A stretch of DNA of 64,000 bases from a virus (IMGVR_UViG_3300024273_002067), one strand, 5' to 3'. Numbered from the stretch's first letter, positions 4,233-60,674 are shown. The notes: generated from the sequence alone by a model not told the origin. Numbers and translations are program-made.

Positions 4233-5716
4233 ATTTGCAATAACATATAGTACAATTTCTTTTTAGGCCTTGACACTGCTACGTAATGAACGTTCTTCTC
4301 TTCTTGATAACCATCCATACCAGGATAAAATGTATAGTAATCCTTTTTATCTGATGGTATTTCTATTTCATTCTTTTCAACTAAATCTTCTGGCAAGGAG
4401 TTTACAACTACACAAGTGTGAAACTCTTTACCCTTAGATTTATGTATTGTTGTAACAAAGTTTTTATTTTCTTTATTTTCTTCTATAAATCTAACCAAAT
4501 CCATAACACCCCCAGGAAAATTATCTAAAACATAATCTAACCTTTTTCTTATTAAAGAATTTATTTTTCCATCCTTTATGTCTTCAACATCTTTTTCCTT
4601 AAGGTAATTAAAATAATTTAAAGGAACTTTTCTACTCAACAAATTAAACTCTATTAACTTAACTATAAAATTTGTTCTTGCCAAAACTACAACTTCATCT
4701 TTATTTTTAATTAATTCAACTAATTTATCAAAATCTATGAATGTTTCGTTTATTTCTCCATCAAATGTGTGAAAAGATTTTGCGTCTAAACTTGAAAACT
4801 GATTAGAATTTGATATTATTTGTTTGGCACTTCTAAAGTTAGTGGTCAAACTCATTCTGTCAACCTTTCTCCTTTTTAACAAAATGTCTTCAATGGCTGC
4901 ACAATTACTTCCGCTATAACCATATATAGACTGATTTAAATCACCAACCAAATAATACTTCTTAGCATTTAACTTCATAAGTATGTCCATTTGAATAGTA
5001 CTAGTGTCTTGATATTCATCTAAGAAAAGATAGTCATATTTGTCTTTAAACATTTTCAACCACTTATTCTCTTTGAGTAAATTTCTCACATCTAATAATA
5101 TATCAGAAAAATCTCTCTTTCTTTTTTCTCTTAAATATTTTGAGTATGGAATGTAAAAGTCTGGAATTCTAACTTTTATACCATCTGCCGTCTGTAATTT
5201 ATATGATGATATTTGAGAGTCTAAAAAATCTGCATCATCATATAGGTTTGATATTATTTTATCAAACTTGAACACTTCTTTTTGAGTGGATTTTTTGGAT
5301 GGCTTATTTGTTATTTTATACCACTCTATGAATTCATAAAAATTAGTTACACCCTTAAACTTACCCATTCTATGCAACATCCAAAAACAAAAGGAATGTA
5401 TTGTAGTTATTCTTATGTCTGGGTTGTTTACTCTTTCCTTTAATTCTTCAACGGCAGCATTTGTAAAGCTAAAGAATATAATTTTTTTGGGGTCTGCTCC
5501 ACGTTTTATTAACTCTTTTAACCTTAGAACACAACAATGAGTTTTCCCTGAGCCTGCACAACTTGATAGTAGAACTGACTTTTTAGTGCGAGAAAGAACG
5601 AATTCTTTTTGTTCATCAGTTAACATTGATATTGCATCATTATCTTCTTTTTCTTGAAAAGCGTCTAATTGATTTTCATCTTTCATTTTTTCCATTTCAT
5701 TTGAAACTTTACTCAT
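4229..5716 (-). CDS. Compact UvrD/Rep-family SF1A helicase
   Basis: SCAGSGKT, FSFTNAA, TIHSF, DEYQD, VGDLNQSIYGY, NFRS, TIHKSKGKEF, YVAVSRPKK. Confidence 0.9.
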   Translation of the reverse strand: MSKVSNEMEKMKDENQLDAFQEKEDNDAISMLTDEQKEFVLSRTKKSVLLSSCAGSGKTHCCVLRLKELIKRGADPKKIIFFSFTNAAVEELKERVNNPDIRITTIHSFCFWMLHRMGKFKGVTNFYEFIEWYKITNKPSKKSTQKEVFKFDKIISNLYDDADFLDSQISSYKLQTADGIKVRIPDFYIPYSKYLREKRKRDFSDILLDVRNLLKENKWLKMFKDKYDYLFLDEYQDTSTIQMDILMKLNAKKYYLVGDLNQSIYGYSGSNCAAIEDILLKRRKVDRMSLTTNFRSAKQIISNSNQFSSLDAKSFHTFDGEINETFIDFDKLVELIKNKDEVVVLARTNFIVKLIEFNLLSRKVPLNYFNYLKEKDVEDIKDGKINSLIRKRLDYVLDNFPGGVMDLVRFIEENKENKNFVTTIHKSKGKEFHTCVVVNSLPEDLVEKNEIEIPSDKKDYYTFYPGMDGYQEEKNVHYVAVSRPKKKLYYMLLQI

Positions 5717-6197
5717 TCCTAATATTAATTATACCACCTTTTTTAGATTTTTTAGACCATAAAAGCAAAAATTCACCTGACAAACCCTTCATGTTGCTCT
5801 TTTCCAAAATTAAACCTCTGCTTTTTTTAAAAACACTTTTAGGTGTAATATTAATTTCTAAATACCCCCTTAATTTTCCAATAGGACATAATTCAACACC
5901 TCCAAAATTAATAACGTCAAACATCTCATCAGACTTATTGTAATAAAGCTGATTTCCTAAAATGTCACAAATTGACATATCACTTAATATAGCGCAAAAA
6001 TCTTCAGAAATCGGACTATTAGATTCTGTTTCGAATGCTAATTTAGCACATAGTCTGTTAATAGTTGTTATAAAAGTATTATTCCATTCCAATCTACTAG
6101 CATAAGGAGTTATGCCTCTAGGTTGTGCAAAGTCATAAGAATACCATTCTTCTTCAACCAACATTTTACAAATACTATTATTGTAACTTGGGTTCAT
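5709..6197 (-). CDS. Short protein resembling the C-terminal part of a gp23-like major capsid protein
   Basis: PYASRLEWNNTFITTINRLCAKL, ISEDFCAILSDM and IGKLRGYLEINITP recall the PYTQKDWNQTLIT.IN..SAQI, VSSE.SAIFDDL and VGTL.GRYQVYRDP blocks of large-phage MCPs (recalled, not searched). Confidence 0.6.
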   Translation of the reverse strand: MNPSYNNSICKMLVEEEWYSYDFAQPRGITPYASRLEWNNTFITTINRLCAKLAFETESNSPISEDFCAILSDMSICDILGNQLYYNKSDEMFDVINFGGVELCPIGKLRGYLEINITPKSVFKKSRGLILEKSNMKGLSGEFLLLWSKKSKKGGIINIRNE

Positions 6198-7011
6198 TTT
6201 GTGTCGTTCTACTTTTCTCCATTATTTTTTCTAAAACTTTTTTTGTATCAGTTGAAAAGTCAGACTTCATAAACCAAGTATAGTATCCTGGGTTGTGTTT
6301 TAAAACATCAACGACTGACTGGTCTTGATATTTTCCAAAATTAAATACAGCAACATTGTTTTCATTTAATACAATCCTTCCAGAATAATCTAACTGACCT
6401 TTGAAATTCGTAAAATCATGAAGTTTAGACATATCGTTTACGATTGGCCTTTCTTCTACGGTTCCATCAGACTCTTCATAGTTAGAATGTTTATAGTAGT
6501 CCAACTGACTCTCCAATATAGCAGCAGTAGCTCTAATGTCATTCATAGCATCATGAGCGCCCTCTAAATCTTTATTACAATAAAACTTATATGCTGCTTT
6601 TAGATTTCTAGGTTCCATCTTCTGAAATATTTTCCACACGTCAATAGAACGTCTATTATTCATGTCAAACTCAGAACCAGCTCTATAAAACTCTTCTATT
6701 AATAAAGGAACATCGAATCTATTACTATTAAATCCACACAAGTCCGCATCGCCTATAAACGATTCTATGCCTTTTGATATTTGCTTGAACGTTGGAGCGT
6801 CTTGAACCATATCATTTGTAATTCCATGAATAGCAGAAGCTTCTTCTGGTATTGTTACAGTTGGATTTACTAATCTATTTTTTTCTTCAGGCTTTCTTCC
6901 GTCAGAATAGTATTTTATCATTCCTATTTGAACTATCCTATCACTAGAAACGCTAACACCTGTAGTCTCTAAGTCAAAGAACACCAAATCTTTACTTAAG
7001 TTTAAATTCAT
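6178..7011 (-). CDS. DnaQ/DEDDh 3'-5' exonuclease
   Basis: FFDLETTG, FNSNRFD, AHDAMND; C-terminal FNFGKY motif as in Bacteroidota homologs. Confidence 0.9.
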   Translation of the reverse strand: MNLNLSKDLVFFDLETTGVSVSSDRIVQIGMIKYYSDGRKPEEKNRLVNPTVTIPEEASAIHGITNDMVQDAPTFKQISKGIESFIGDADLCGFNSNRFDVPLLIEEFYRAGSEFDMNNRRSIDVWKIFQKMEPRNLKAAYKFYCNKDLEGAHDAMNDIRATAAILESQLDYYKHSNYEESDGTVEERPIVNDMSKLHDFTNFKGQLDYSGRIVLNENNVAVFNFGKYQDQSVVDVLKHNPGYYTWFMKSDFSTDTKKVLEKIMEKSRTTQNEPKLQ

Positions 7012-7013
7012 TA

Positions 7014-7196
7014 TTATATTTTTTGTAAATTATCTTTATTTGCCCAAAAAATTCTTTTAACGTTACTTTCGGACACAGTCTCTATCTTAACCATGTTAGA
7101 AGACAAATCTTCTTCTAATTCTTTTAACAAAACATCTGAAGATACAGAGTTTCCATCTTCAAAAAAAAATTCTTCTTTCAACTTATATTTTGGCAT
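7014..7196 (-). CDS. Hypothetical protein (60 aa)
   Basis: Fills the gap between sigma and DnaQ genes with 2-nt spacers. Confidence 0.6.
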   Translation of the reverse strand: MPKYKLKEEFFFEDGNSVSSDVLLKELEEDLSSNMVKIETVSESNVKRIFWANKDNLQKI

Positions 7197-7198
7197 AA

Positions 7199-8065
7199 CT
7201 AACTTAAATGTTGTTTTAAAATTTCACTCCTACTTCTGTGCCTCAAAACTTTTATAGCAGCATCTTTTATTTGCCTAACCCTCTCTCTTGTTAATTCAAA
7301 ATATTCACCCACTTCTTCTAATGTCATTTTTGGATATCCCATTATTCCATAATACATACAAACCACCTCTCTCTGCCTGGGTGCTATGCTTTTTAGTGTT
7401 GATGACAAATCTTTATGCAAAGAATCTGCAGCCACACTAAGGTCTACATCATTCATTTCTCCTTCTGAAATTGTATCGTATAAACTATAACCATCATCAT
7501 CTGAAGAAAGTGGGGCGTCTAATGAGGTTTGAGGCTGAGCTGAACGTAGTAATCTAGATATTTTTATCACATCTTCTTGCATTATTTCTGCTATCTCTTC
7601 TTCTGTTGGCTCTCTTTGATTTATCTGCTCAAAACCTCTGGATTCTTGCTTTAATTTATAATAAGTGCTTATTTGATTTGTTGGCAATCTAACCATTCTG
7701 GAATTGTTTGCTAAAGCCTCTAATATTGACTGTCTAATCCACCAAACGGCATAAGAAATAAACTTAAATCCTCTTGTTTGGTCAAATCTTTCAGCTGCTT
7801 TTATCAAACCATAATTACCCTCATTTACTAGGTCTTCAAAATTTATACCCTTACCTTGATATTGTTTTGCAACACTTATGACAAACCTCAAATTCCCCGT
7901 AATTAACATTTGTCTAGACTTTTCATCTCCTTCTTGAGACTTAGTGGCGAGGTCATGTTCTTCTTCTTCTGTAAGTTGTTTAATTTTATTTATTTCATTT
8001 AAATATGACTTTATAGAATCAGAATCTCTGTTTGTTATTTTGTTAGTTATCTTTAGTTGCCTCAT
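7199..8065 (-). CDS. RNA polymerase sigma-70 factor, Bacteroidota RpoD-like (copy 1)
   Basis: MRQLKIT start, NLRFVISVAKQY, RGFKFISYAVWWIRQ, TLEEVG..FELTRERVRQI. Confidence 0.93.
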   Translation of the reverse strand: MRQLKITNKITNRDSDSIKSYLNEINKIKQLTEEEEHDLATKSQEGDEKSRQMLITGNLRFVISVAKQYQGKGINFEDLVNEGNYGLIKAAERFDQTRGFKFISYAVWWIRQSILEALANNSRMVRLPTNQISTYYKLKQESRGFEQINQREPTEEEIAEIMQEDVIKISRLLRSAQPQTSLDAPLSSDDDGYSLYDTISEGEMNDVDLSVAADSLHKDLSSTLKSIAPRQREVVCMYYGIMGYPKMTLEEVGEYFELTRERVRQIKDAAIKVLRHRSRSEILKQHLS

Positions 8066-8197: not shown

Positions 8198-9061
8198 TTA
8201 CAAATACTTTATTAACAACTCTTTTGTTGATGTGTTTTCTAGAAGCTTCTTCTCAGCCTTTCTAGCGATTTGTCTAATCCTCTCATTGCTATATCCTAAC
8301 TTTCTAGCAATTTCCTCCTTAGAGAGAGCTTGACAATCTATACCATAAGTGTATCTTACAACTATAGCTTCTTTGATTGTAAGTATTTTAAATGCTCTAT
8401 ACATATCTTTCTTTAAAGAATCGTCCAACAGAGAGGAGTCTGGTGCTCCCATACTAGAGTCTTCTATTAAATTAGCTAAAGTTGAAGAACTTTCATCAGA
8501 GCCCACTTTTGCATCTAGAGACGAATGATATATGCCAGCTTGTTGAAGCAATTTACCTGATTCTACATCTATATCCATATACTCACACACCTCAAGCTCC
8601 GAAGGCTCTCTTTCAAGTCTTTGTTGTAAGTGTTGCACAGCTCTAAAGTATTTCCCAGCCTCTAAATTTTTGTTAGAAGGAACTTTTATCATTCTCTTCT
8701 TTTCAGATATGGCTTGTATTATCGTTTGTCTAATCCACCAAACTGCAAAAGATATAAACTTGAACCCCCTAGTGCCATCAAACCTCCCTGCAGCTTTTAT
8801 AAGACCTAAATTACCTTCATTTATTAAATCAGCTAAAGGCAATCCTGTATTTTGATATTTTTTAGCAACGCTAATTACAAACTTTAGATTTGACTGAACC
8901 AACTCTTCTAATGCTTTTTGGTCACCTTCTTGGATTAGCCTTGACAATTCAAACTCCCTCTCTGGGGTGATTGAGTCAAACTTATTTACATCTGTAAAAT
9001 ACTGTTCTATTGATTTTTCCGTTCTGTTTGTAAGGCTCTGCTGAATTTTTAACTGTCTCAT
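8198..9061 (-). CDS. RNA polymerase sigma-70 factor, RpoD-like (copy 2, diverged region 4)
   Basis: MRQLKIQ start, NLKFVISVAKKY, RGFKFISFAVWWIRQ, region 4.2 SKEEIARKLGYSNERIRQI. Confidence 0.92.
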   Translation of the reverse strand: MRQLKIQQSLTNRTEKSIEQYFTDVNKFDSITPEREFELSRLIQEGDQKALEELVQSNLKFVISVAKKYQNTGLPLADLINEGNLGLIKAAGRFDGTRGFKFISFAVWWIRQTIIQAISEKKRMIKVPSNKNLEAGKYFRAVQHLQQRLEREPSELEVCEYMDIDVESGKLLQQAGIYHSSLDAKVGSDESSSTLANLIEDSSMGAPDSSLLDDSLKKDMYRAFKILTIKEAIVVRYTYGIDCQALSKEEIARKLGYSNERIRQIARKAEKKLLENTSTKELLIKYL

Positions 9062-11649: not shown

Positions 11650-12015
11650 TTATTTTTTTTGATACTTTTTTAAATTTTCTGGCCAAACTACTATCCTGTT
11701 TTCAGTAGACACATATCTATAGTCTAGTATATTTAAAAAATAGCGTTCCCCCTCATCGCTTGCAACCATAAACCTACAGTCACCCTTAAATCCGCTCATC
11801 AACTTTGTTGTAGCCTCACAAAAAGCTTCTGAATTTGAGTATTCTAAATCTATTGTGTTGTTTTTTTTGTTTTTTGAAGTACTAGTAAAGTGTCCTAAAA
11901 ATTCCATATTAAGTTTTGTTTTTTTTCTTTCTTTTAATTTATACAACCAAAAGTATGTAATTACCTTAACGAAAGCAAGTTTTATTGGGAAAAATATTGA
12001 TTTTTTTTTAATCAA
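11650..12015 (-). CDS. Hypothetical protein
   Basis: ORF on the coding strand overlapping the neighbour's stop; start uncertain. Confidence 0.55.
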   Translation of the reverse strand: MIKKKSIFFPIKLAFVKVITYFWLYKLKERKKTKLNMEFLGHFTSTSKNKKNNTIDLEYSNSEAFCEATTKLMSGFKGDCRFMVASDEGERYFLNILDYRYVSTENRIVVWPENLKKYQKK

Positions 12016-12487
12016 AAATTTTATAATAAAATCTAGGAAGCAAAAAATCTGATTCTGAGTAATTTAACTTATATTCATATTTGATTAAGGCAACATCAAA
12101 GTCCATGGATTTAACTACAACTCCTGTGGGGTCTAGTAAGTCTATTTTACAAATATGCATATCTTTATACTCGTCCATCCAATCATTTGTTCCAATTGCT
12201 AACATTGATTCTATTGTTATAATGTTTCCGTGTTCAATAGTATGAGAGAAATGTAATGATTTAATCCTATCTGGGCTGATTGTTTTGTTTGAATATTCAT
12301 TTTCTAAAAAAACCATAAATCTGTTTGATTTATATGGCTCAAAACCATTAAAAAGACTGCCTTGATTGACTTGGTTGTGATTAAATCTATAAGCAGGTAC
12401 GTTGTTTGTGCTGTAAAACACATAGCTTGTATCAAGAGGTTTTTTATGTTTTTCAAGAATTAACTTCCTCTTTCTCCTCTTGTACAT
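12008..12487 (-). CDS. Diverged tail-tube-like (gp19-like) paralog
   Basis: FEPYKSNRFMVFL and CKIDLLDPTGVVVKS..F resemble FEP..NRF and LDP.G.VVE.W blocks of large-myophage tube proteins (recalled). Confidence 0.6.
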   Translation of the reverse strand: MYKRRKRKLILEKHKKPLDTSYVFYSTNNVPAYRFNHNQVNQGSLFNGFEPYKSNRFMVFLENEYSNKTISPDRIKSLHFSHTIEHGNIITIESMLAIGTNDWMDEYKDMHICKIDLLDPTGVVVKSMDFDVALIKYEYKLNYSESDFLLPRFYYKIFD

Positions 12488-12489: not shown

Positions 12490-13125
12490 TTAATATCTGT
12501 TTTTATACTTTAATATTTTCTGCATTTTTACAGGAGTAAGTATAAGGCCATTTTTTAATGTTAAAGAAAATTGTTTAGAAATGGCTTTTTCGATTAAACC
12601 AAAACTAAGTCTAGTGTCTCCTACTAAAAATCCTCTATCAGTAAATTTAACTAAAAATGGAGAATTTGTTTTAGTGTCAAACCTAACTATTATATCCTTT
12701 TTTTCTATTTTAGGACTTTCAGAAACTGCTTTAGCGTTTACATTAACACTTTCTACATCTTGTTCACTCAACGATTGAGAAGCGACCTTTTCAGCTTCCA
12801 CTTTCTGACCTTCTAAATCTACGACTCTTTGTTGAGCAGAGGATTCCAGCTCTTTTGTCAAATCCAACTGGTCTTGGGTTATCTTAACTTGTGCATCAGC
12901 CATTTTTTTATAGTCGGCACCAGTTGCTGAGGTCTGCACTTGTTTATCCATTTTTAATTTCTCCGTTAGATTCTTTAGACTTTCTTTAGTTTTCTCTAAA
13001 GTATCTTTGGATAATTCAATAGCATCTTCTAAACTTGAAACATTATCAACATTAGCATCAGCTTCAAATAAGTGCGAAGCTGCTTCTTTTAGTATAAATG
13101 AGTCTATATCTTTTTTGGTAAACAT
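12490..13125 (-). CDS. Hypothetical coiled-coil protein, possibly virion internal
   Basis: FILKEAASHLFE N-terminus; TATTTAT upstream. Confidence 0.6.
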   Translation of the reverse strand: MFTKKDIDSFILKEAASHLFEADANVDNVSSLEDAIELSKDTLEKTKESLKNLTEKLKMDKQVQTSATGADYKKMADAQVKITQDQLDLTKELESSAQQRVVDLEGQKVEAEKVASQSLSEQDVESVNVNAKAVSESPKIEKKDIIVRFDTKTNSPFLVKFTDRGFLVGDTRLSFGLIEKAISKQFSLTLKNGLILTPVKMQKILKYKNRY

Positions 13126-47979: not shown

Positions 47980-48356
47980 AATTGATTGTTTTCATCATTT
48001 TCATTGTCTTGCTCTATAATTTCTGCATTTATAGCCTCTTGATAAATGTCTATAGCCTGAGAACTAAAAACAACATAATTAGCAACTCCACTTATCATTT
48101 CGCCTCCTCTTTCGCTAATTATTCTAGAACACTCTTGAATGCCATCACTCAACTGCCTTCCCCATTCTTTATTCATATCTTCTATGATTTTTTTGTTAAA
48201 AAACTCTAACAACAAAAATCTTTTATTTGAATTATTTGAAGCAGCAATAGATTTGTTTGATTTAGAAAATGGTGACTCAAATTTCTTTTTAGACATGTCC
48301 CAAAGGGAGCTTTTGTCCTTATCTTCACGATTTTCTCCTTCTCTTTTTAACATCAT
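47976..48356 (-). CDS. Short protein with a segment resembling a gp23-like major capsid protein
   Basis: KEWGRQLSDGIQECSRII...GVANYVVFSSQAIDIY versus recalled MCP block KDWNQTLIT.IN..SAQI...GGANWIVVSSE.SAIF. Confidence 0.5.
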   Translation of the reverse strand: MMLKREGENREDKDKSSLWDMSKKKFESPFSKSNKSIAASNNSNKRFLLLEFFNKKIIEDMNKEWGRQLSDGIQECSRIISERGGEMISGVANYVVFSSQAIDIYQEAINAEIIEQDNENDENNQL

Positions 48357-48728: not shown

Positions 48729-49277
48729 TTGAATATTTATGAATATTATCAACTATTTATATATAACAACAAAAATACGAAAAATAATATTGATATGAAA
48801 GAGAATAAGCTAATTTTAGGCTTTGGGAGTGTTAAGGAATTGATGGATTCTGTACTCGGACTAAAGAACTCACTTGTAAATTTTGTACTTGCCGCATGCA
48901 CAGCTTTAACATCATTTATAACACAATATATATGGGATGATGCTTCTGCGGTATATTTTATGTTGTTTTTAATTTTAATTGACGCATCTACTGGTGTATG
49001 GAAATCTATTGTAAACAGAAGTTTTAGCAGCAGTAAATTGCCTAGGATTTTTGTAATTTCCATAATATATGTTTTAATGCTATCTATAAGCTGGCATGCC
49101 GCAAAGCACTCAAGCTTGTTTGTCTGGTTGCCTGGTATGGTTTATGGGGGACTAATTGGAACTCCTTTAGTTTCTATATATGAAAACTTTGCCGAATTAG
49201 GCTATGTACCCAAAGGGTTAGTTTATGATATTAAAGAAAAAATAAAAAATTACTTTAACAAAAAACATAACAACTAG
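48729..49277 (+). CDS. Phage holin family protein (likely start ATG 48795)
   Basis: 3-4 TM helices, LIDASTGVWKS..FSSSK, SIYENF. Confidence 0.75.
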   Translation: MNIYEYYQLFIYNNKNTKNNIDMKENKLILGFGSVKELMDSVLGLKNSLVNFVLAACTALTSFITQYIWDDASAVYFMLFLILIDASTGVWKSIVNRSFSSSKLPRIFVISIIYVLMLSISWHAAKHSSLFVWLPGMVYGGLIGTPLVSIYENFAELGYVPKGLVYDIKEKIKNYFNKKHNN

Positions 49278-51499: not shown

Positions 51500-52577
51500 C
51501 TATATTTTTAATCATTATTATAATATTTTCCCTATTCTCTTTCCAGTCGTTCTCCCAAATTTCAATAAAATTACATTTGAGAATATTTATTATCTCATTT
51601 TTTCTCTTTCTGTCATCCTTCCAAATTTCACTTGCATATTTGTTTTTATTTTTATGATAAAAACTATTTTCATAAATTAAAGGATTACAATGCCAATAGT
51701 CTCCCATAACCTCTATCACTATATTGTATTCTTCATTATAATAATCAATCTTATAGAATTTATTTTTATTTATAACTAATATCTTCTGCCCTAAAGGTGA
51801 TTTTTTAAAAAAAGAGTCTCCTGGGACTTCTTTTGATATTTCAGCAATAATTTCTCTTTCCAACTTAGATGTCTCTCCAAAATTTTTATTTACCTTTTTA
51901 GCATTTGCAAGCTGCCATTCATCAGAATAAAATAAATTATCTACTCCAAATTTTTCTTGCATAGAAATCGTTACTGCAGAATAATGACAACCTCTCTCTA
52001 AAAACCATTTAACACCATATTTATTCTCTATTGTTTTTGAAATTTTATCTCTAATCTCTTTTATTTGAACAGGGGATGTCATTCCAGTAACTCCATAATT
52101 TTCATTTAAACTCCTATTAAAAGAGTCTCTATATTCTCTAGTTTTATAGTAAAGTGATTTATAATCTTTCTCCGAAATTATATAACCATGTGACCAAAAT
52201 TTTACTCCCCCACGAGATGGATGTAATTTAACTAAAACATTTTTTTTACTAAACCTATCATAAATCTGAATCTTCGCATCTGTTATTGAAATCTCTTTAT
52301 TTAAATCAGTTTTTACTCTAACTGACTTCTGACCCCTTCCGCTTTTTCCAAAAAAACACCTTGTTGCTTTTCCAATATTTACCTCTCCTACAAAGACAAA
52401 CTTTCCAACCACATTTTCCAAAGAAATAAATAAATCACTCTTATATTCCCAATCTCTTTTTTCTTCTTCAGATGCTAACTTTAGCTCTTGAAAGCCAACT
52501 AAAGCTTCACACAAATCTTTTTGTGTATCAAAATTATTATTTTCTATTTCTTCTTTTTTCATTTTACTATAATCCAT
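51477..52577 (-). CDS. Free-standing Vsr/DUF559-like (EDxHD-type) homing endonuclease between the dnaE halves
   Basis: KYGV/KFGV repeats, SKLERE, IDYY, IEVMGDYWH, IWE.DW. Confidence 0.8.
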   Translation of the reverse strand: MDYSKMKKEEIENNNFDTQKDLCEALVGFQELKLASEEEKRDWEYKSDLFISLENVVGKFVFVGEVNIGKATRCFFGKSGRGQKSVRVKTDLNKEISITDAKIQIYDRFSKKNVLVKLHPSRGGVKFWSHGYIISEKDYKSLYYKTREYRDSFNRSLNENYGVTGMTSPVQIKEIRDKISKTIENKYGVKWFLERGCHYSAVTISMQEKFGVDNLFYSDEWQLANAKKVNKNFGETSKLEREIIAEISKEVPGDSFFKKSPLGQKILVINKNKFYKIDYYNEEYNIVIEVMGDYWHCNPLIYENSFYHKNKNKYASEIWKDDRKRKNEIINILKCNFIEIWENDWKENRENIIIMIKNIVESYENI

Positions 52578-52607
52578 GTCTATAAATATAGATAAAAACT
52601 TTAAACT

Positions 52608-54833
52608 TTAAAAAGAAAACAGTAAGTCTGTTTCTTTTATTTCATCAACTCTTATTTCAATTCTTTTTTTATCTCTGAAAACAGGAATTATATGACACCC
52701 TGTGAGCTGAACAACAGAACCGTCTTCAGTCTCTATCTCAAATATATTCTCATGCTCTTCCAGCTCTCTCTCATGCTTCTGAACCAAGACTCCTTTTCCA
52801 GTTTCAGTCTGCACTGGGTCTCCGACTTTAACATCCACTACATTTTTATAAGAACCATCTTTCATCATAACATTACAATTATCTGTAAGACAATTTCTGG
52901 CTGGATTTAAGAATCTTTCAAAATACAAATCAAACCTTATCGGGTCAATCTTTGTTATGTCTAAGCACCAAGAAAGTAAAGAGCCTGCCGCACTTCCCCT
53001 TCCTGGCCCTACCTCTATATCGTTGTCGGCACAAAACCTTATAAGCTCCCAAACCACAAGAAAATAATCCAACATTTTCTTTTCTTTTATAACCTCCAGC
53101 TCATAGTCTAGCCTTTCTCTGTACTTAGAAATTTTATCATCATCTATTTCAACAGGCCCACGCTCTTTATATATATTAAGCTTTTGATTAAGCTTAGCAT
53201 GTGACAACCTTCTTATTATCTCTTCTCCATCATTGGTTTTAAAAAAGTCATAAACATCTTTAGTTGGCTTATATTTCGGATATTTCTCTACGTCTGTTTC
53301 AAAGTCAAAATTACATATAGAAGCAATTTTTTCACTTGTAATCATACACATTTTTATGAATTCTTCACTATAATTAAATCCATAATTCTTGTTCATTTCT
53401 AATATCTCAGACTCGTCAACGTAGTACATGTCCCTACTGTCTTTGGTCCTAGCTCTTTTTATAGACCTTTTTTGATTTATTGAAATCAATACATCTTGTA
53501 GTACTTTATCCTTTTTTTCTGGGTAGTATATGTCATTAGAAATTATTACAGCCATACTATATTTGTCTGACATGTTAATTATGAAGTCATTATAATTCCT
53601 TTGTACCTCATTGTCCTCAAGGGAAATTTCGGCTATATAAGACTTTTTTCCAAATGCACTTAACATGCTCACTAGATAATCTTCAGCATCTTTATATTTG
53701 CCCATTTGCAAATATTTACATATTGTTCCGTTTTTAGATGAAGTTGTTAATATCAAACCCTCTTTATTCTCCAAAATCCATGAAGTTTTTATTCTAGGAA
53801 CTCTATAAAAACCTTCAGCAAATGATAAATAATTTATTTTATTAATATTAACAAAACCCTCTTTATTTGTAACTATTATTTTTTGAAGAACATTTTTATC
53901 TTGTTGCTTAGGCTCATACTCACCACCAATACTATCGTTTAAATGAAATTCACATCCTATTATCGGTTTTATGTTTTTAGATTTACACTTTTGATAAAAA
54001 GAAAAAGCACCAGACAAGCTACCTTTATCTGTCAAAACTAAAGATTTGTGATTATACTTTTTGGCTAAATCAATATAATCAGAAGTTGAACCAGCACCTT
54101 CTAGTACAGAATGATAAGTGTGAACTCCAAAATTTACCATAGAGAAGTCGTTATTAAAATCTCCATTTTTTGACTTCCACTTATTAATTATATTTTGTTC
54201 AGAATCAACTGAAGACATATGTGTTTTGAAGTCATCCCCAAAACCTAATCCACCTATTCTTCTGAGCTCGAAAAAACATCTAGCCAACGCCTCAACATCA
54301 ACCAGTGCATCATGAGCATCTTCAAAAGCCTTGTTAAACAACTTCTTGTGCAATTCTGTAAGAGTAGGAGGCTTAAGTCCCATCTTGCCTTGTATTCTAC
54401 AAAAATCTATAGTAGAATTCATAGTGCATATATTCACTATGTTTCTCATTGAATTTTTCATTTTTAATCTAAAAAACTCAGAAGCCGTAACTTTATTGTC
54501 GAAACTTACATTGTGTGCAACAATAAAATTAGAATTCTCTATATCTTTAGAAAATTCTTTCAAGACATCAGAAATTAAAACACCATCTCTGTTAGCTCGT
54601 TCATTAGTTATTCTATGAATTCTAATGCTATCATCTGGTATGACAAAACCGTCTGGTTTTATAATTTTATTATTAGAGCTTATGACTTTACCATTTATGT
54701 CATACACCTTCCATGCCAACTGAACTATTCTGGGCCAATTGTCCGTATCGCTAACTGGTGCGCTAAAATCTTCAGGAAGCCCTGTGGTTTCTGTATCAAA
54801 TACTATAAACATAATAAATTTTATATCATACAA
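52608..54833 (-). CDS. dnaE: DNA polymerase III alpha, N-terminal half (DEDD exonuclease + PHP) ending in split-intein IntN (likely start ATG 54812)
   Basis: FDTETTG..NWPRIVQ, HTYHS, GPGRGSAAGS, FERFLNPARN, then CLTD. Confidence 0.93.
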   Translation of the reverse strand: MYDIKFIMFIVFDTETTGLPEDFSAPVSDTDNWPRIVQLAWKVYDINGKVISSNNKIIKPDGFVIPDDSIRIHRITNERANRDGVLISDVLKEFSKDIENSNFIVAHNVSFDNKVTASEFFRLKMKNSMRNIVNICTMNSTIDFCRIQGKMGLKPPTLTELHKKLFNKAFEDAHDALVDVEALARCFFELRRIGGLGFGDDFKTHMSSVDSEQNIINKWKSKNGDFNNDFSMVNFGVHTYHSVLEGAGSTSDYIDLAKKYNHKSLVLTDKGSLSGAFSFYQKCKSKNIKPIIGCEFHLNDSIGGEYEPKQQDKNVLQKIIVTNKEGFVNINKINYLSFAEGFYRVPRIKTSWILENKEGLILTTSSKNGTICKYLQMGKYKDAEDYLVSMLSAFGKKSYIAEISLEDNEVQRNYNDFIINMSDKYSMAVIISNDIYYPEKKDKVLQDVLISINQKRSIKRARTKDSRDMYYVDESEILEMNKNYGFNYSEEFIKMCMITSEKIASICNFDFETDVEKYPKYKPTKDVYDFFKTNDGEEIIRRLSHAKLNQKLNIYKERGPVEIDDDKISKYRERLDYELEVIKEKKMLDYFLVVWELIRFCADNDIEVGPGRGSAAGSLLSWCLDITKIDPIRFDLYFERFLNPARNCLTDNCNVMMKDGSYKNVVDVKVGDPVQTETGKGVLVQKHERELEEHENIFEIETEDGSVVQLTGCHIIPVFRDKKRIEIRVDEIKETDLLFSF
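52611..52892 (-). mobile_element. Split intein, N-terminal part (IntN, 94 aa)
   Basis: Cys1 CLTDNCNV..DGS.K, block B LTGCH, ends at the stop codon. Confidence 0.9.
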
Positions 54834-54883: not shown

Positions 54884-55492
54884 ATGAACTTAATTTCTAC
54901 AAGTGAATATAAATCATTAGAGCCAAAAGAAAAATCTAAATTTCTTGATTATTTAGTTTATCTAAAAGCCCCAGTTGGTCTTTATTTTTTTAAAAATTTT
55001 AGCAACAAACAAAAGCAGGACTACATAGAAAATAGAATAAAATCAGCAGATTGGTTAGAGGATTATGAATTTACTATAATGTCTAATGACCAAAAGCAAA
55101 GATATATATTTAGAAAGAGATTTTTAACTAATTCTGAATTCTTAAAACTTAATGAAAAACTTCAAGAATATTATTTGCAAATGGCTTCTTATATTAAGTT
55201 ACAACTTAATGATAGTGAGTTTAAAATATTAAGCCCAAAAATGAAAAAAATATATTGCAATTTTACTTTTGAGTTCCCTTTAGTTTTAGATGTTGAAAAG
55301 GTTCAGTTTTTAAGCAAAAAGAATCAAAAAAGATATATAGAAAAACAAGTCGAAAGAGGAGTTTCTTTTTCGGAGGCACAATATAAGACTTTACCTCCCA
55401 TAGCAAAAGTTGAGTATAATAAAATAAAAAATTCTAATTTAAATGAAGTTAGAATTTTTATTAGAAAAATTTTAAAAGAGACTTTATGTTAA
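54884..55492 (+). CDS. Helical repeat protein (about 7 repeats of F..L....Q..Y)
   Basis: EYKSLEPKEKSKFL / EFTIMSNDQKQRYI / EFLKLNEKLQEYYL etc.; TATTTAT upstream. Confidence 0.7.
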   Translation: MNLISTSEYKSLEPKEKSKFLDYLVYLKAPVGLYFFKNFSNKQKQDYIENRIKSADWLEDYEFTIMSNDQKQRYIFRKRFLTNSEFLKLNEKLQEYYLQMASYIKLQLNDSEFKILSPKMKKIYCNFTFEFPLVLDVEKVQFLSKKNQKRYIEKQVERGVSFSEAQYKTLPPIAKVEYNKIKNSNLNEVRIFIRKILKETLC

Positions 55493-55788
55493 GAGTAATC
55501 ACTTTGATTATCTTCTCTCTGCTTTAACAGGCTAGCCCTCAACTCTATACAAAGCTTTCTTATTTCATTTAGATTATTTCTAGCATCTATTGAGGCATCC
55601 ACAGTTCCTTTGAACATAAACTTATATAACCTAGGCTCTGTTTTTTCAATTAAAAATTTTATTTTTTGAAAAATTTCATCAATACCATATTCATCGTCTT
55701 CAACATTTTTATCACTCAAAGAGTTTGAATTCTTTTTTAAACCCAATCTTTTATCTCTTATTTGCTTTTTTAAATCATCGTAATCCAT
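55489..55788 (-). CDS. Hypothetical protein, possibly Hc1-like helical DNA-binding protein
   Basis: KFMFKGTVDASIDARNNLNEIRKL resembles KF..KGNKAAG.RARK.L.E.K.L (recalled). Confidence 0.4.
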   Translation of the reverse strand: MDYDDLKKQIRDKRLGLKKNSNSLSDKNVEDDEYGIDEIFQKIKFLIEKTEPRLYKFMFKGTVDASIDARNNLNEIRKLCIELRASLLKQREDNQSDYS

Positions 55789-55818: not shown

Positions 55819-57642
55819 TCAAATAGTATTTCCTTCATTTAACAAATCATTTCCTTCATCATCTAACCCAGTCTTTTCGTCTATGCTGTTTAACTTAGAG
55901 GTTATAGAGTCAATTAAATTTTTTGTTTTAGTATTTAAATTCTTATTTTTTTTGTTCAAAATGTTAACGTTTTTACTTGCATTAACCTTATCATCTATTG
56001 TTGCTATGTTTAAATCCTTTAAATCTTGCTCCAAAAATAAAACACTCTCTTCTAGAGGCTCATCTACAGCAGGCTCATCAACAGACGGCTCATCTACAGC
56101 AGGCTCATCAAAACTTGCATCATCTCCAGCATCTCCAGCATCTCCAGAAAGAGTATCTTCTGCTGCCTTAAACTTTTCGTCTATATCAGCAAAAAGACCA
56201 GTTTGCATATACTCCTCTGGTGCAGTCTCTATTTCTGAGAACATTTTTTTCTCTACTTTTTTCTGTCTTAATATTTGTTTTATTTCCGCCTTGGAGAATC
56301 CCATAACATACTCCATAGCCCAAGTGTAGGATACTGGCGAAGTTGGTTCTGCAGTGTACATTTCCTTAAAAACTTCAAGCCTAGCCTTCATTGTCTCTAA
56401 CTTTAACAACTCCTGCTGTGTGGATGGATTAGTTAACTTTAGGTTGAAATTGTCCATATCATCCTCAAATCCCAAAAGAAATAGGTGAACGTTTGCAATT
56501 CTTCTAAGCTCTATTATTATATTTTCTTGTATTCTATTTATAGTTCTACTGAACCTCAAATCAGCCTGAGATAAAGCTGAACCACCAGGCATAGATTCTG
56601 CATAATTCAAATAAGGCTTAGGCACTTTCAGTGCTGCAAACAATTTATTTTGCAAATATTCCACATCTTGTATCTCCCCTAGATTAGATGCTCCAGGAAG
56701 CGTTTCTATCCTAGAAGACTTATCCCCTCTAATGGGAAGAAAGTAATCTTCCTCCATTGTTAAGGGATTGTATTTTAAATTCATTTGACCAGTCTTCTGG
56801 TCAACAATAGGAGATTTTTTTAATTCTCTTTTTATTCTTTCAACATATTGTTGTACATCTGCAGACTCTAAGTTACCAACTTCAATATAATGAACCCTTC
56901 TCTCAGGGGCTCTAATAATTCTATATACTAACATGGCATCTTCTGCTAGCTGAAGTTGTTTCCAAAGCTTTCTGGCAGGGTCTAAAACGCTTCTACCATA
57001 AGGTAATTTTGTACCATCTGAAACTAACCTAAAGTGAGCTATTTGAAACTCTTCAAAGTACATGTTATTAATGTCCCACTTAAATCTAGAGGAATTTACA
57101 TTACCATCAAAAGCTTCTTCTCTATGAATTTCTGCAACAGGCAACATTCTTACATCGTATATTCCTTCTTGTTGGTCTATTTCCAATTTAGCAAAAGCAT
57201 CTCCGAACTTAATCATTTCTCTAATCCAAAAAGTCAAATTATATTCTATATTTAATCTGTCATGAAACAAATCTTTTAGAATAGTTTTGATTCTATCATT
57301 TTCAGAATATATTGACAATATATCACCCCTTTCATCTCTAGTTACAGTTTCATCTGTAATTATATCTAATGCTGCAGAAACTTCAGGAGACATGTCCATG
57401 GCTCTATAATCATTATATGCACCAAGCCTATCTGTGTCATAATAAACACTTCTAGAATATATATCTTGAGCAATTTTTTGAGACTGCACATCTAGAAAGT
57501 CTTGCTGCCTCTGTTGTACTGGTGTAGATTGAGGGCTAGAAATATTCCCAGAAATAACTTGCTTCTCTTGAGGCAGTGGCCTAGAAGTCCTTCCCCTCTT
57601 CAGTCTGTCCAATAAATTTATAAATACACTTTCGTCTGCCAT
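55819..57642 (-). CDS. Portal protein (T4 gp20-like)
   Basis: EVSAALDII.DE, EDAMLVYRIIRAPERRV..IEVGNL, EDYFLPIRG, IETLPG, KLFAALKVP. Confidence 0.93.
   Translation of the reverse strand: MADESVFINLLDRLKRGRTSRPLPQEKQVISGNISSPQSTPVQQRQQDFLDVQSQKIAQDIYSRSVYYDTDRLGAYNDYRAMDMSPEVSAALDIITDETVTRDERGDILSIYSENDRIKTILKDLFHDRLNIEYNLTFWIREMIKFGDAFAKLEIDQQEGIYDVRMLPVAEIHREEAFDGNVNSSRFKWDINNMYFEEFQIAHFRLVSDGTKLPYGRSVLDPARKLWKQLQLAEDAMLVYRIIRAPERRVHYIEVGNLESADVQQYVERIKRELKKSPIVDQKTGQMNLKYNPLTMEEDYFLPIRGDKSSRIETLPGASNLGEIQDVEYLQNKLFAALKVPKPYLNYAESMPGGSALSQADLRFSRTINRIQENIIIELRRIANVHLFLLGFEDDMDNFNLKLTNPSTQQELLKLETMKARLEVFKEMYTAEPTSPVSYTWAMEYVMGFSKAEIKQILRQKKVEKKMFSEIETAPEEYMQTGLFADIDEKFKAAEDTLSGDAGDAGDDASFDEPAVDEPSVDEPAVDEPLEESVLFLEQDLKDLNIATIDDKVNASKNVNILNKKNKNLNTKTKNLIDSITSKLNSIDEKTGLDDEGNDLLNEGNTI
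56057..56147. repeat. Short tandem repeats in portal C-terminal acidic tail (15-bp DEP(A/S)V and 9-bp GDA units)
   Basis: ggctcatc(t/a)acag units (3 full plus a partial) and catctccag x3. Confidence 0.9.
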
Positions 57643-57653: not shown

Positions 57654-58379
57654 TTAATAAATATTAAGTTTTTCTTTTTTAAGCTCTGTAGAGGGGTTTT
57701 TATAACACCTTACATCAACTAAATGAGGTGCTCTCATGTGAAACACGCTACTTCCATTACTAATAGAATATTTTTTATGTTTCTTTTCTATTAATAAATC
57801 TTTTTTATAAAAAGACAAAGCGTCACTTAATTTTAAGTGAAAATTTTTAAAAGCCATATCACACATCCCCCCAGTTGATGACAAACAAATTAACTTACCA
57901 CCTTCAACCAAAGACTGTGATGAGTACGTTAATATATTTTCTAAATCTTGATGATAAGCGGCCTCGTCTATAATAATAACATCAAACCTAGAACCTCTTA
58001 ACTTATAGTAGTCATTAAAAGTTCTAAAACAAGAGCCTTCAAGATGTAAATCTTTCGCACCCCCTCTAAGCTTGTCTTCAGGATAGCCCCTTAATAAAAA
58101 TCCTAGATGAGTTAAACATTCTGTTGACTCAAAAGGTGAAGCTCCAATAAAAGCTATTTCTTTTCTATCGTATGAACTCCTCATTAAATTGGCTACATAA
58201 TATAAAATCACAGAGGTCATACCCGACTGCCTACTTTTCAGTATGGATATAACATTATTTCTATCAATAGTGTGTAATACTGATTTTTGATTTAAATCAA
58301 AATATTCAGGAATAACGCCCTTACTTTTAGAGTGTAAAAAATCTTTTATATTTGTTAAAAAACTTGTCATCAATGACAA
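57654..58379 (-). CDS. Terminase large-subunit ATPase-only paralog (likely start ATG 58370)
   Basis: KSRQSGMT, LRGSRFDVIIIDEAAY and KLICLSST align with the adjacent TerL; no nuclease domain. Confidence 0.8.
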   Translation of the reverse strand: MSLMTSFLTNIKDFLHSKSKGVIPEYFDLNQKSVLHTIDRNNVISILKSRQSGMTSVILYYVANLMRSSYDRKEIAFIGASPFESTECLTHLGFLLRGYPEDKLRGGAKDLHLEGSCFRTFNDYYKLRGSRFDVIIIDEAAYHQDLENILTYSSQSLVEGGKLICLSSTGGMCDMAFKNFHLKLSDALSFYKKDLLIEKKHKKYSISNGSSVFHMRAPHLVDVRCYKNPSTELKKEKLNIY

Positions 58380-58409
58380 TAAAGGACTTTTTATAAAAAA
58401 GTAAATAGA

Positions 58410-60071
58410 CTATGCTTTTATTGGCCCGTATAACCAAGAAGTGTCATTCAAATCGTCATCATCATCCCAACTATCTTTATTTGAACCATCTAAACTTAAT
58501 GAGCTAACGTCTTTTTGGCTAAAACTTATCATATCTAACATTTCTTTAGTTCTTTTCTTATTCCAAAATACAGATTCAAACTCAGTATCTCTAATTAACA
58601 GCGCAATAGCCATTCCAAATATTAAATCATCATTAAATCCATTTTCATGCTCTGCCTTATCTCCTTTGTAAACAAAAGTTTCAAACTCTACAAGCAATCT
58701 TAGAGAGTTTATTTTAATTTCCATTTCTCTCATATATTTTACCAACGAACTCATGAGTAAAGGTCTAGTTTTTACCGTTGTCTGAAATCCTGGAACATCT
58801 GTATCTTTGTCAACAACATAATTGTGAGTTCTATTGTATAATTTAACTGCAGATTTAGATATATACATTCTTTCTTTAGGATATTTCAAGGTATTCTTTA
58901 GCATTAACGTTGTTGCTAAACCAAAACTGTTACACTCAACTGCCATAAAAGCATTATTATAATCCGTTCCCACCTTGTAAAGAAGTTCTGCAAATACATC
59001 AGGAACTATTTTTCCTTGAAATTCACCAACTTGCTCTAAGCTGTCAGCGTCTATTATTTGAACTGTAGAGAAATCGGCACCATCTCCTCTACCAACGTCA
59101 GACCCAATTATATAGTTCCCACCTTCTTTTGGTTTTTTCCATATATGAAAAGATGTTACATATTCACAAAAACTGCCATCTTTTTTCTTAAAATCATAAT
59201 AGCATACAGGCTTTTTATCGCCTATGTCTTTGACATATTTTTGTATTATTGAACTATCTATGACAACAGCGGTTGAGCCTTCAAAAGACAAATCTAATTC
59301 TTGTGCAATTTTAATTGTATTATGGTGCATTCTTTGACACTCTCCATCATACCATGGGCTCCATGGATATTCTTTTCCATCAGAGTCTATTCTAGTCTCT
59401 AACCCTTTAGATAATATAGGATGTATAGACCAATGCAACTTTATAGGAAAGAAGTTGCCCCTACCCTTATTTGCTTGAGTCCATGTTTGGTGATAAAGAT
59501 TTCCAGTACCCTTAGGTGTAGAAATCATAATACACTTACCTTGGGTAGCAGCCAAAGCCAGCCCAGCCCCCATCCATATATCTTGAGCATGCTCAATAAA
59601 CGCGGTCTCATCTAATATCAGGCAAGTTAAAGATTCTCCTCTACCAGCCTGCTTACTACTGGCAACAGCCTTAACCCAAGAGCCATTAGAAAAAGATATT
59701 TGCTTTGTATTATTTATTAAAGTTTCTTCTGGTAGCATCCAATCTGGTAATCTGTCCAAAAATTGTTTAACGGTATTCAAAAACCTAACGGCACCATTGC
59801 CACTATCAGCAACTACCAATATTCTTTCATCAGGACAAAAGGTCAACCTCCAGGCAACATATAAAGCTGATATGACTGACAGGCCCATCTGTCTAGATTT
59901 TAAAACTATTGAGTTTTGACTATCATTAAACTGATTAAGACAATCTTCCTGATAGGGAAAACACGTCATTTTCCCCATCTGCTGTTTCTCCATGTCAAAA
60001 ACATATCCATATGTATTCGCAAAATATACTGGGCTTTTTGCGCAAGAAACGTATTCTTCAATATAATTCAT
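58410..60071 (-). CDS. terL: Terminase large subunit
   Basis: KSRQMGLS, RGESLTCLILDETAF, ISTPKG, GSDVGRGDGADFS, NDDLIFG. Confidence 0.95.
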   Translation of the reverse strand: MNYIEEYVSCAKSPVYFANTYGYVFDMEKQQMGKMTCFPYQEDCLNQFNDSQNSIVLKSRQMGLSVISALYVAWRLTFCPDERILVVADSGNGAVRFLNTVKQFLDRLPDWMLPEETLINNTKQISFSNGSWVKAVASSKQAGRGESLTCLILDETAFIEHAQDIWMGAGLALAATQGKCIMISTPKGTGNLYHQTWTQANKGRGNFFPIKLHWSIHPILSKGLETRIDSDGKEYPWSPWYDGECQRMHHNTIKIAQELDLSFEGSTAVVIDSSIIQKYVKDIGDKKPVCYYDFKKKDGSFCEYVTSFHIWKKPKEGGNYIIGSDVGRGDGADFSTVQIIDADSLEQVGEFQGKIVPDVFAELLYKVGTDYNNAFMAVECNSFGLATTLMLKNTLKYPKERMYISKSAVKLYNRTHNYVVDKDTDVPGFQTTVKTRPLLMSSLVKYMREMEIKINSLRLLVEFETFVYKGDKAEHENGFNDDLIFGMAIALLIRDTEFESVFWNKKRTKEMLDMISFSQKDVSSLSLDGSNKDSWDDDDDLNDTSWLYGPIKA

Positions 60072-60146
60072 AGTTCACTATTATTAAATATAAATATTAA
60101 GCAATTATTAAAATACTATACAGAGTCTGAATCGCATTTTTTTAAT

Positions 60147-60674
60147 CTAAAAATCATAACTTTTGTTGGATAAGTTTTTTATTGTCTTAGGCTCTAGCGT
60201 TACAGACATTTGCTTCTGAATGTTTTGTCCCCTATAGTAAAATATTGGGTTTTTTGGTATGCAGGATATTAAATTAATTTTTATTATTTTTTTTAAACTT
60301 TTATTAATAGCGTAAACATGTATATCTTTAGCTTTTTTATTGAAAATATTTTGTTCGTAATATTTATTTTTCTTGTTATAAAAGCTATGTATCCAATCGT
60401 TTATTTCTGAACCATCTGTAGAGCCATTGTTGCTAATAATATGAAACTTATAACTATAATCTTTATATACCTCTGGTGCAAATGATGAATTTATTAATCG
60501 ATTATAATCTAATGAAAAGGCTAAAACTTGACTATTTGTATTAGAATATGGGTCAAAATCAATAATAACATAATTTTCCCATAGATTATCTTTGTCAATC
60601 TTTTCTGTTAACAAATAACTTTTAGAGTATAAACCTTTATATAATGGAAGAAAAGAAAATTTTGACCTTTTCAT
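60147..60674 (-). CDS. Hypothetical protein, possibly a highly diverged tail-tube-like paralog
   Basis: KDIHVYAINKSLKKIIKINLISCIPK...MSVTLEP recalls the C-terminal half of tube proteins. Confidence 0.35.
   Translation of the reverse strand: MKRSKFSFLPLYKGLYSKSYLLTEKIDKDNLWENYVIIDFDPYSNTNSQVLAFSLDYNRLINSSFAPEVYKDYSYKFHIISNNGSTDGSEINDWIHSFYNKKNKYYEQNIFNKKAKDIHVYAINKSLKKIIKINLISCIPKNPIFYYRGQNIQKQMSVTLEPKTIKNLSNKSYDF

Follow-up and report, generated by a model that had tools for sequence, protein, structure and literature searches.

Small genes resembling pieces of the terminase, major capsid and tail-tube proteins in a marine T4-type phage

A 64,000 nucleotide stretch of DNA from an uncultured marine phage (IMGVR_UViG_3300024273_002067; the whole stretch is called the window here) carries five small open reading frames (ORFs) that resemble parts of the virion and packaging proteins of the phage itself. 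One of them is related to the ATPase domain found in the large terminase TerL (57654-58370, the TerL paralog); ORF 5709 and ORF 47976 resemble one segment of the major capsid protein (MCP), ORF 12008 has a predicted tail-tube fold and ORF 60147 is possibly tube-like (the ORFs are named after their first coordinate). All five have orthologs in related metagenomic phage contigs with ratios of nonsynonymous to synonymous substitution rates (dN/dS) of 0.17-0.41 and are therefore, as judged from these comparisons, real genes. The reading we favour, at slightly less than an even chance, is that they belong to two classes and do not form one system. Class 1 would be a core tube-fold gene (ORF 12008), and class 2, the other four, would be accessory, exapted mimics of virion-protein surfaces. 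An earlier note on this DNA had proposed the five ORFs as a possible set of decoys directed against host immunity. The five do not behave as one set: they are not co-inherited, ORF 12008 is core-like, four are accessory, and two of these four are linked cassettes.

The TerL paralog codes for 238 amino acids and lies between terL and the portal gene. BLASTP aligned it with the TerL of the window at 26% identity across 146 aa (E 4e-5), it matches the PHROG terminase family phrog_2 (E 1e-5), and a hidden Markov model (HMM) of the paralog family matches TerL residues 41-197 (E 1e-10 to 1e-12). The ATPase-only copy of TerL that the earlier note had pointed out is thereby confirmed, with its start moved from the TTG at 58379 to the ATG at 58370, which is probably the true start. 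The PHROG matches are restricted to the ATPase part, and the family HMM gave no match past TerL residue about 197. Since the C-terminal RNase H-like nuclease domain is absent, the product is a TerL-ATPase-like protein and not a terminase. Even orthologs of only 20-26% identity show no deviation from the Walker A-like motif K-x-R-Q-x-G-x-[ST], the SSxGG coupling motif or the glutamate of Walker B (invariant residues K45, R47, Q48, G50, E136, S164, G167 and G168). Such invariance over deep divergence suggests a protein that still binds or hydrolyses nucleotides. Within the length range covered, a search of 5.8 billion proteins gave just 17 clusters of the family, every one from this phage clade, and in 50,697 phage records tblastn matched the paralog to nothing but TerL proteins of Flavobacterium phages.

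In all close relatives the paralog ends in the same 11 codons (57654-57690), which overlap the TATTTAT element upstream of the portal gene. A functional peptide at the C-terminus was considered as the cause but explains the tail less well, since the same DNA persists as non-coding sequence in the lineage that does not have the gene, which has retained the 5' junction and ~45 nt from the end of the ORF as intergenic DNA (L031:6662-6757). The tail is presumably invariant because the overlap with the portal upstream element constrains it at the DNA level.

The distribution of the two genes flanking terL was determined in related contigs from IMG/VR, ENA and TARA. Seven contigs with a TerL 89-94% identical to that of the window carry the paralog in the same place, where it is only 50-60% identical. 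In five contigs with a TerL of 87% identity the portal gene directly follows terL, with a 94-nt gap, and on the other side the ortholog of ORF 60714 is followed directly by terL. Neither the paralog nor ORF 60147 was found anywhere in G004, one of these five (a 232.5-kb record, estimated to be 88% complete), with a TerL 87% and a portal 81% identical. Lineages with a TerL of 80% identity contain both cassettes, the paralog being 20-32% and ORF 60147 40-43% identical. Flavobacterium phage immuto also has terL and then portal directly. Both terL-flanking genes are preceded by an exact copy of the 14-mer TATTTACTTTTTTA, 36-37 nt ahead of the ATG, and this element is over-represented (6 matches in the window at <=1 mismatch vs 0.62 expected). 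Synonymous divergence between L001 and L002 is 0.05 in the paralog and 1.18 in TerL, and between L002 and L004 it is 0.90 in the paralog and 0.21 in TerL. Because the distances of the paralog disagree with those of its flanks, alleles have been exchanged by recombination. Altogether, the comparison of these contigs indicates that the paralog and ORF 60147 are dispensable, exchangeable cassettes on both sides of terL, located at a repeated junction element.

Two contigs of the TerL-80% lineages contain further unrelated small ORFs inserted beside the ORF 60147 ortholog (L033:493-1044 and L034:4381-4986), so that the flanks of terL are a hot spot for cassette insertion. A different repeat, TATTTATA, occurs in 13 minus-strand copies in the window; 10 of the 13 lie 10-38 nt ahead of start codons, a 21-fold enrichment upstream of genes. 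It is promoter-like and reminiscent of the T4 late promoter. It precedes structural and replication genes alike, and for this reason no early or late timing can be assigned from it.

For the comparison with the capsid protein, the gp23-type MCP of the clade was taken from a relative (L050:1477-3036:-, PF07068 E 3e-75) and a profile of 76 MCP sequences was built. Against this profile the ORF 47976 family has an hhalign probability of 92% (E 5.5e-7) over MCP residues 363-406, and the ORF 5709 family one of 49% (E 1.7e-4) over residues 362-382; single sequences of the latter extend the match to 340-406, including a clade-specific loop. When the MCP profile was compared with about 50 ORFs of the window as single sequences, ORF 47976 and ORF 5709 ranked 1 and 2 in the same columns. 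Their scores of 51.5 and 36.9 exceed the maxima of 27.2 and 28.5 obtained with shuffled sequences, and reversed and column-shuffled controls were well below. A HMMER profile of the ORF 47976 family also picked out the MCP gene in six-frame scans of the genomes of three relatives. Alignment to T4 gp23 places the segment in the A-domain, where it covers a long helix, a strand and a helix. A motif of 11 residues, EWNxTFITTIN, is invariant in 18 members of the ORF 5709 family and corresponds to DWNQTLITxIN. The two short ORFs like one MCP segment, which the earlier note had named, thus map to the same MCP columns and lie above all shuffles. The profile data indicate that ORF 47976 and ORF 5709 share local homology with a helix-strand-helix of 45-65 residues in the A-domain of the gp23-type MCP, and that this homology is weaker for ORF 5709.

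The complete HK97 fold (P-domain, A-domain, E-loop) is absent from both proteins, as only MCP residues about 340-406 were matched. Neither has a Pfam or PHROG match, and the two family profiles show no significant match to each other (1%). The ORF 47976 protein ends in an acidic C-terminal tail. Its ortholog in the G004 lineage is a 61-aa ORF with only the N-terminal half and without the MCP-like half, and the ortholog in the G007/8 lineage (113 aa) is divergent and keeps the MCP-like strand motif; an ortholog of ORF 5709 was not found in G004-G008. Both genes sit in replication and recombination operons with overlapping stop and start codons.

ORF 12008 was modelled with AlphaFold2 from an alignment of 34 diverse relatives (34 clusters at 50% identity) obtained by exhaustive profile search. 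The model has a predicted local distance difference test score (pLDDT) of 80, with about 95 in the core. VIA gave Z scores of 9.3, 9.3, 9.1 and 9.0 to the tubes of 80alpha, PVC, SPP1 and NF5; the superposition with the phage 80alpha tube has a root-mean-square deviation of 3.6 A over 105 residues, and dozens more tube and Hcp matches follow. The top Foldseek matches are the AFP tube and Hcp, the top matches of Foldseek and VIA together are nearly all tail-tube or Hcp proteins with Z 8-9.3, and structure matches in BFVD include tail tube and gp27. The model thus predicts a tail-tube/Hcp fold for ORF 12008. The first 45 residues of the protein are basic and disordered, and this extension contains a conserved RKRK-L-L-x-E motif. 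At the sequence level no Pfam match was found at E up to 0.1, PF06841 (Phage_T4_gp19) included, and 32 family members scanned against PHROG yielded nothing consistent. The ESM Atlas returned no usable feature matches for ORF 12008 or ORF 5709, and its model of ORF 12008 is poor. With the genuine tube of the clade ORF 12008 has an N-terminal strand motif in common (21 columns, profile probability 20-25%). This genuine tube (171 aa) lies beyond the end of the window, where it was found in a relative as a pair with the sheath (782 aa), and it is 95% conserved across the same lineages.

The gene order ribonucleotide reductase-573 aa-61 aa-211 aa-tube-like-Hsp20 is kept in a relative of only 39% identity. 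Orthologs of ORF 12008 are present in G004 and G007, thus also in a lineage without the terL cassettes. From this distribution ORF 12008 appears to be a widely conserved, core-like gene with a conserved neighbourhood of its own. The upstream regions of the 211-aa gene (ORF 12490) and of the baseplate gene 43087-43989 have the 12-mer ACTATTTATAAT in common, which is within chance once one mismatch is allowed.

Members of the ORF 60147 family match PF06841 at E 0.07, 0.036, 0.0024 and 0.002 (13-18 bits, positions 57-108), below the cut-off of 28.2 bits. The genuine tube of the clade itself scores just 18.8 bits against this model (E 0.0015), about as weak as ORF 60147, for which co-linear motifs were also seen. 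The profile comparison of ORF 60147 with ORF 12008 gave 1.5%. Of the one or two tube-like ORFs named in the earlier note, ORF 12008 is therefore borne out by its model, and ORF 60147 reaches only the sub-threshold gp19 matches. In scans of all five candidates, the TerL paralog alone matched PHROG (E up to 0.01) and the weak gp19 match of ORF 60147 was the only Pfam match (E up to 0.1). Profile searches of PDB sequences with the four unclassified families gave nothing relevant at E up to 10. As judged from these profile and fold comparisons with MCP, tube and TerL, the resemblances to the phage's own virion and packaging proteins appear to be real.

Most of the five genes also lie outside the capsid and tail modules, as had been proposed: ORF 5709 is found at dnaQ and uvrD, ORF 47976 in the dnaE-recD operon and ORF 12008 between the ribonucleotide reductase and Hsp20 genes, and the other two flank terL. 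The dN/dS values are 0.33 for the paralog, 0.18 for ORF 60147, 0.39 for ORF 47976 and 0.41 for ORF 5709, all below 1, compared to 0.03 for TerL, 0.055 for the portal and 0.08-0.13 for conserved small neighbours. The paralog and ORF 60147 evolve about 5-10 times faster than their neighbours TerL and portal. This points to selection on the class 2 genes that is purifying but relaxed; they evolve fast, not neutrally, and the pseudogene-like evolution that the earlier note had considered was not seen. The patchy distribution it predicted was found for the paralog, ORF 60147, ORF 5709 (absent from G004) and ORF 47976 (shortened there), but not for ORF 12008. Patchiness and fast evolution fit any accessory or conflict gene and are thus uninformative about host sensors.

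According to the reading we favour, the five ORFs would either descend from parts of virion and packaging proteins of this phage or have come to resemble them by convergence. In class 1, ORF 12008 and its constant partner ORF 12490 would belong to the core genome, and the widely conserved tube/Hcp-fold protein would most likely form rings as a minor component of the tail or baseplate type, or act as a carrier like Hcp. The four class 2 genes would be lineage-variable accessory genes, of which the terL-flanking pair would be gained, lost and exchanged at the repeated junction element. Every class 2 protein seems to retain one recognisable surface or core of its parent protein: in the TerL paralog a P-loop ATPase core that appears to be catalytic, in ORF 60147 possibly the tube fold, and in ORF 5709 and ORF 47976 the helix-strand-helix of the MCP A-domain. 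The comparisons show homology or fold, conservation, selection and distribution; we infer in addition that the class 2 proteins act by mimicry, each binding the usual interaction partners of the TerL, tube or MCP part that it resembles. Such a partner might be a sensor of the host, or it might belong to virion assembly, either of this phage or of its competitors.

Several observations weigh against the class 2 part of this reading. The MCP-like stretches are short (21-65 residues) and the hhalign probability for ORF 5709 is modest. AlphaFold2 gave no usable model for ORF 5709 (18-sequence alignment, pLDDT 35), which leaves the MCP-like pair without a fold. The profiles of ORF 60147 and the genuine tube do not match significantly (hhalign 1-1.5%), and the unproven tube-like status of ORF 60147 is suggestive at best. 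The strictly conserved catalytic motifs of the TerL paralog suggest an enzyme that has its own function and is more than a mimic. Finally, co-variation of the paralog with ORF 60147 was seen across three lineages only, and the joint absence of four genes in G004 may reflect merely a smaller genome. The first of these points, together with the mutual match of only 1% between the ORF 5709 and ORF 47976 families and the insignificant ORF 60147 comparison, could also be taken to mean that the likeness to MCP is due to chance or to a generic helix-strand motif, and that ORF 60147 is not tube-like. The real cases would then be limited to the TerL paralog and a single tube-fold gene, both of them unremarkable paralogs. 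We regard this as very improbable, because two ORFs flagged beforehand ranked at the top of about 50 in the same MCP columns, their scores exceed every shuffle, HMMER independently recovered the MCP gene in three genomes, and the 11-residue motif is invariant in 18 members while the G007/8 ortholog keeps the strand motif.

The genes might instead encode ordinary assembly or structural parts. The tube-like proteins would then be tube terminators, initiators or minor tube proteins, the paralog a subunit with an accessory or regulatory role in the packaging motor, perhaps in place of a small terminase, and the MCP-segment proteins chaperones or scaffolds of capsid assembly, with beta-augmentation as their way of binding MCP. 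In T4-type phages the structural genes are scattered, and several tube-fold proteins (gp19, gp48, gp54, gp3) in one myophage are normal. The paralog and ORF 60147 lie inside the packaging/neck cluster behind the same element TATTTACTTTTTTA, the ATPase motifs of the paralog are conserved, no small terminase was recognised near terL in the PHROG and Pfam scans, and the ORF 12490 operon and a baseplate gene share, as a weak point, the 12-mer ACTATTTATAAT. However, a sister lineage with very similar TerL and portal proteins (87% and 81%) lacks the paralog and ORF 60147 in 232 kb, which suggests that both are dispensable for making virions. ORF 5709 and ORF 47976 belong to replication and recombination operons in which stop and start codons overlap, and the accessory genes change at about 5-10 times the rates of TerL and portal, while the genuine tube is far more conserved in the same lineages. 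We consider this explanation rather unlikely. Allele exchange and rapid divergence at the terL-flanking cassettes, the retention of interaction-competent cores and the co-occurrence of many closely related strains in the same metagenomes would also fit weapons between phages, in which truncated copies would have a dominant-negative effect on the motor, tube or capsid assembly of relatives infecting the same cell and the phage's own diverged proteins would be immune. This is pure inference and has no precedent in the literature searched. In addition, the paralog is merely 26% identical to TerL, which makes co-assembly with the TerL of a close relative doubtful, and we think it very unlikely.

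The explanation given in the earlier note, that non-assembling copies occupy host sensors of the Avs, CapRel or DSR2 type without triggering them, with the NAD (nicotinamide adenine dinucleotide) salvage operon as a backup, is improbable in our view. TerL, tube and MCP are each established sensor targets (PMC13581612, PMC13601566, PMC10981675), and the copied part of MCP is the A-domain, whose capsomer-forming face is bound by Avs7/8/10 (PMC13581612). Patchiness and fast evolution, as expected of arms-race genes, were seen in four of the five, and the window has a NAMPT/NMNAT/PRPP (phosphoribosyl pyrophosphate) synthetase operon. But the TerL ATPase domain by itself activates EcAvs2 and Upx, and T4 vs.8 and Ksap2, both small TerL-ATPase-like proteins, activate Avs2 rather than block it (PMC13601566, PMC11564622). 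The MCP piece of 45 residues is much smaller than the interfaces of 3,700 square-angstrom described for Avs7. Moreover, the catalytic residues of the paralog have persisted through deep divergence, which suggests an enzyme rather than a passive surface, the paralog lies in a late packaging cluster with a late-type upstream element and in no obvious early region, and ORF 12008 is core-like, with a wide distribution and conserved synteny. A touch more doubtful still is the broader version, in which the phage would have repeatedly exapted the TerL ATPase core, the MCP A-domain face and the tube fold into small accessory proteins that jam or titrate sensors, a multi-target decoy arsenal passed between strains as cassettes. 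Since the nearest published analogues activate sensors, we keep the blocking of sensors as a minority possibility and prefer the broader reading as mimics with any of the three kinds of partner.

The positions of the genes and elements are listed in the table. The genome is AT-rich (about 32% G+C), giant and of the T4 type, and the minus strand carries nearly every gene in the window. TerL and portal are T4-like, and the nearest cultured relatives are Flavobacterium and Microcystis myophages with 31-34% TerL identity. The gene map, made by PHROG and Pfam scans, shows genes for a UvrD-like helicase, DnaQ, two sigma-70 paralogs, Hsp20, ribonucleotide reductase, DnaB, an exonuclease, SSB, PolA and a RecA-like protein. 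Tail and baseplate genes form a block at about 25.3-44 kb, which is followed by RecD/ExoV, a split DnaE, portal and TerL; virion proteins lie past 61.8 kb of the window.

Table. Coordinates of the candidate genes, their motifs and associated features in the window
Feature	Position (nt)	Strand	Basis or remark
NAD salvage operon	220-3746	-	NAMPT (phrog_448, E 7e-188), PRPP synthetase, NMNAT-like protein fused to DnaA C-terminal domain
162-aa gene overlapping dnaQ and uvrD (ORF 5709)	5709-6197	-	residues 10-75 (nt 5973-6170) resemble MCP A-domain segment
Core of the MCP-like segment in ORF 5709, residues 34-54	6036-6098	-	
159-aa protein with predicted tail-tube/Hcp-fold domain, residues 50-159 (nt 12011-12340) (ORF 12008)	12008-12487	-	AlphaFold2, Foldseek, VIA
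211-aa gene, always precedes the tube-fold gene (ORF 12490)	12490-13125	-	upstream 12-mer ACTATTTATAAT same as before baseplate gene 43087-43989
125-126-aa gene in dnaE-recD operon (ORF 47976)	47976-48356	-	residues 62-104 (nt 48045-48173) resemble MCP residues 363-406
T4 gp20-type portal	55819-57642	-	PHROG, Pfam; upstream promoter-like region overlaps C-terminal tail of TerL paralog
Stand-alone TerL-ATPase-like gene, 238 aa, between terL and portal (TerL paralog)	57654-58370	-	BLASTP, PHROG, family HMM, motifs
Walker B of TerL paralog, D130-A137	57960-57983	-	
Walker A-like motif of TerL paralog, K45-T52	58215-58238	-	
Junction/promoter-like element TATTTACTTTTTTA upstream of TerL paralog	58394-58407	-	kept in paralog-less lineage
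Large terminase TerL, full length, 553 aa; parent-type protein of the ATPase-only paralog	58410-60071	-	PHROG, Pfam
175-aa accessory gene directly upstream of terL, possibly tube-like (gp19-type) (ORF 60147)	60147-60674	-	sub-threshold Pfam PF06841
Second exact copy of TATTTACTTTTTTA, upstream of 60147-60674	60697-60710	-	

The NAD salvage operon resembles the NARP2-type pathway by which phages are known to reconstitute NAD, and a Nudix gene was seen next to it in relative L011, just outside the window start. Also just ahead of the window start, L011:13001-15838 codes for a 945-aa ClpB-like AAA+ protein fused to a ClpP protease domain. The fusion corresponds to two genes in L012 and L013, and genes for DnaJ and ribosomal protein S21 are nearby. 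The sigma-70 family paralogs are in tandem (7199-8065 and 8198-9061, minus strand) and 42% identical. Another tandem pair on the minus strand, 42104-43087 and 43087-43989, is 39% identical; both match the PHROG 'baseplate hub' family phrog_150 and, from size and pairing, may be tube initiators of the T4 gp48/gp54 type rather than tail chaperones. The plus-strand ORF 48729-49277 corresponds to a called holin gene (PF05105) of L008, and the overlapping minus-strand ORF 48749-49063 may be spurious. An intein-like insertion, which includes an HNH endonuclease gene (51477-52577), splits DnaE in the window (49274-54833, minus strand); in relatives the gene is uninterrupted, the halves abutting (L001-L004) or forming a single 1327-aa gene (L008). 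After the portal gene, a 99-aa gene on the minus strand (55489-55788) has a weak Hc1 histone-like match (E 0.006) and is 84-91% conserved in close relatives. A 92-aa ORF at 61076-61354 (minus strand) matches the SET domain (PF00856, E 6.6e-8) and may encode a viral SET methyltransferase of minimal size.

In bacteria, STAND and related sensors detect core phage proteins, among them TerL, MCP and tube, by their conserved folds. For the question of how phages escape recognition that is hard to mutate away from, this clade offers natural, sequence-defined candidates together with gene-less sister lineages: small genes that each seem to retain one recognisable piece of a sensed protein. All five are short enough for synthesis and testing against cloned sensors. 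In the literature searched, neither phage decoys made from truncated virion paralogs nor MCP-segment mini-proteins, including those with A-domain segments in replication operons, were found described.

Among known systems, DSAD1 is a phage inhibitor that stops the tail-tube sensor DSR2 from firing (PMC10981675, PMC11087589). It is the functional model that the earlier note invoked. DSAD1 itself is reportedly not a tube paralog. ORF 12008 shares its predicted fold (Z 8-9.3) with the tube-fold paralogs of contractile tails, such as T4 gp19, gp48, gp54 and gp3, the Afp/PVC tubes and Hcp of the type VI secretion system; it differs from them in its location away from sheath, tube and baseplate genes, in its basic disordered N-terminal extension and in reaching no Pfam or PHROG tube model. 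In T4, gp24 is a full-length paralog of gp23, a complete HK97-fold protein that builds the vertices. ORF 5709 and ORF 47976 are likewise additional MCP-related genes in a T4-type genome, but they carry just the A-domain piece of 45-65 residues in proteins of 126-162 aa encoded in replication operons. The terL-flanking cassettes are like the PeSL-type cassettes of T4-type phages, in which small accessory genes are bounded by a repeated short element and swapped among close relatives precisely there; here the element is TATTTACTTTTTTA plus a short A/T hairpin and flanks terL.

The TerL paralog has two published analogues. KpAvs2 is triggered by Ksap2 of phage Bas60 (Beroiz et al. 2024, PMC11564622), which is also a small phage protein, with a weak structural resemblance to the TerL ATPase domain; no sequence motifs were reported for it, whereas the TerL homology of the paralog is detectable by sequence. 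T4 vs.8 (219 aa) is an ATPase-like protein homologous to the ATPase domain found in T4 terminase and is reportedly toxic together with EcAvs2 (Evans et al. 2026, PMC13601566). Both vs.8 and the paralog are stand-alone proteins of about 220-240 aa from T4-type phages, with a TerL-like P-loop core that has Walker A and B and without the nuclease domain. However, vs.8 is located in the early denV-regB region and is widespread in about 1000 T-even records, whereas the paralog adjoins terL and its family is confined to the 17 clusters. Profile comparison gave no significant match between vs.8 and the paralog family (hhalign probability 2.5%, 25 columns around Walker B only). The paralog would represent a second, independent lineage of stand-alone TerL-like ATPases beside vs.8, which suggests a recurrent function.

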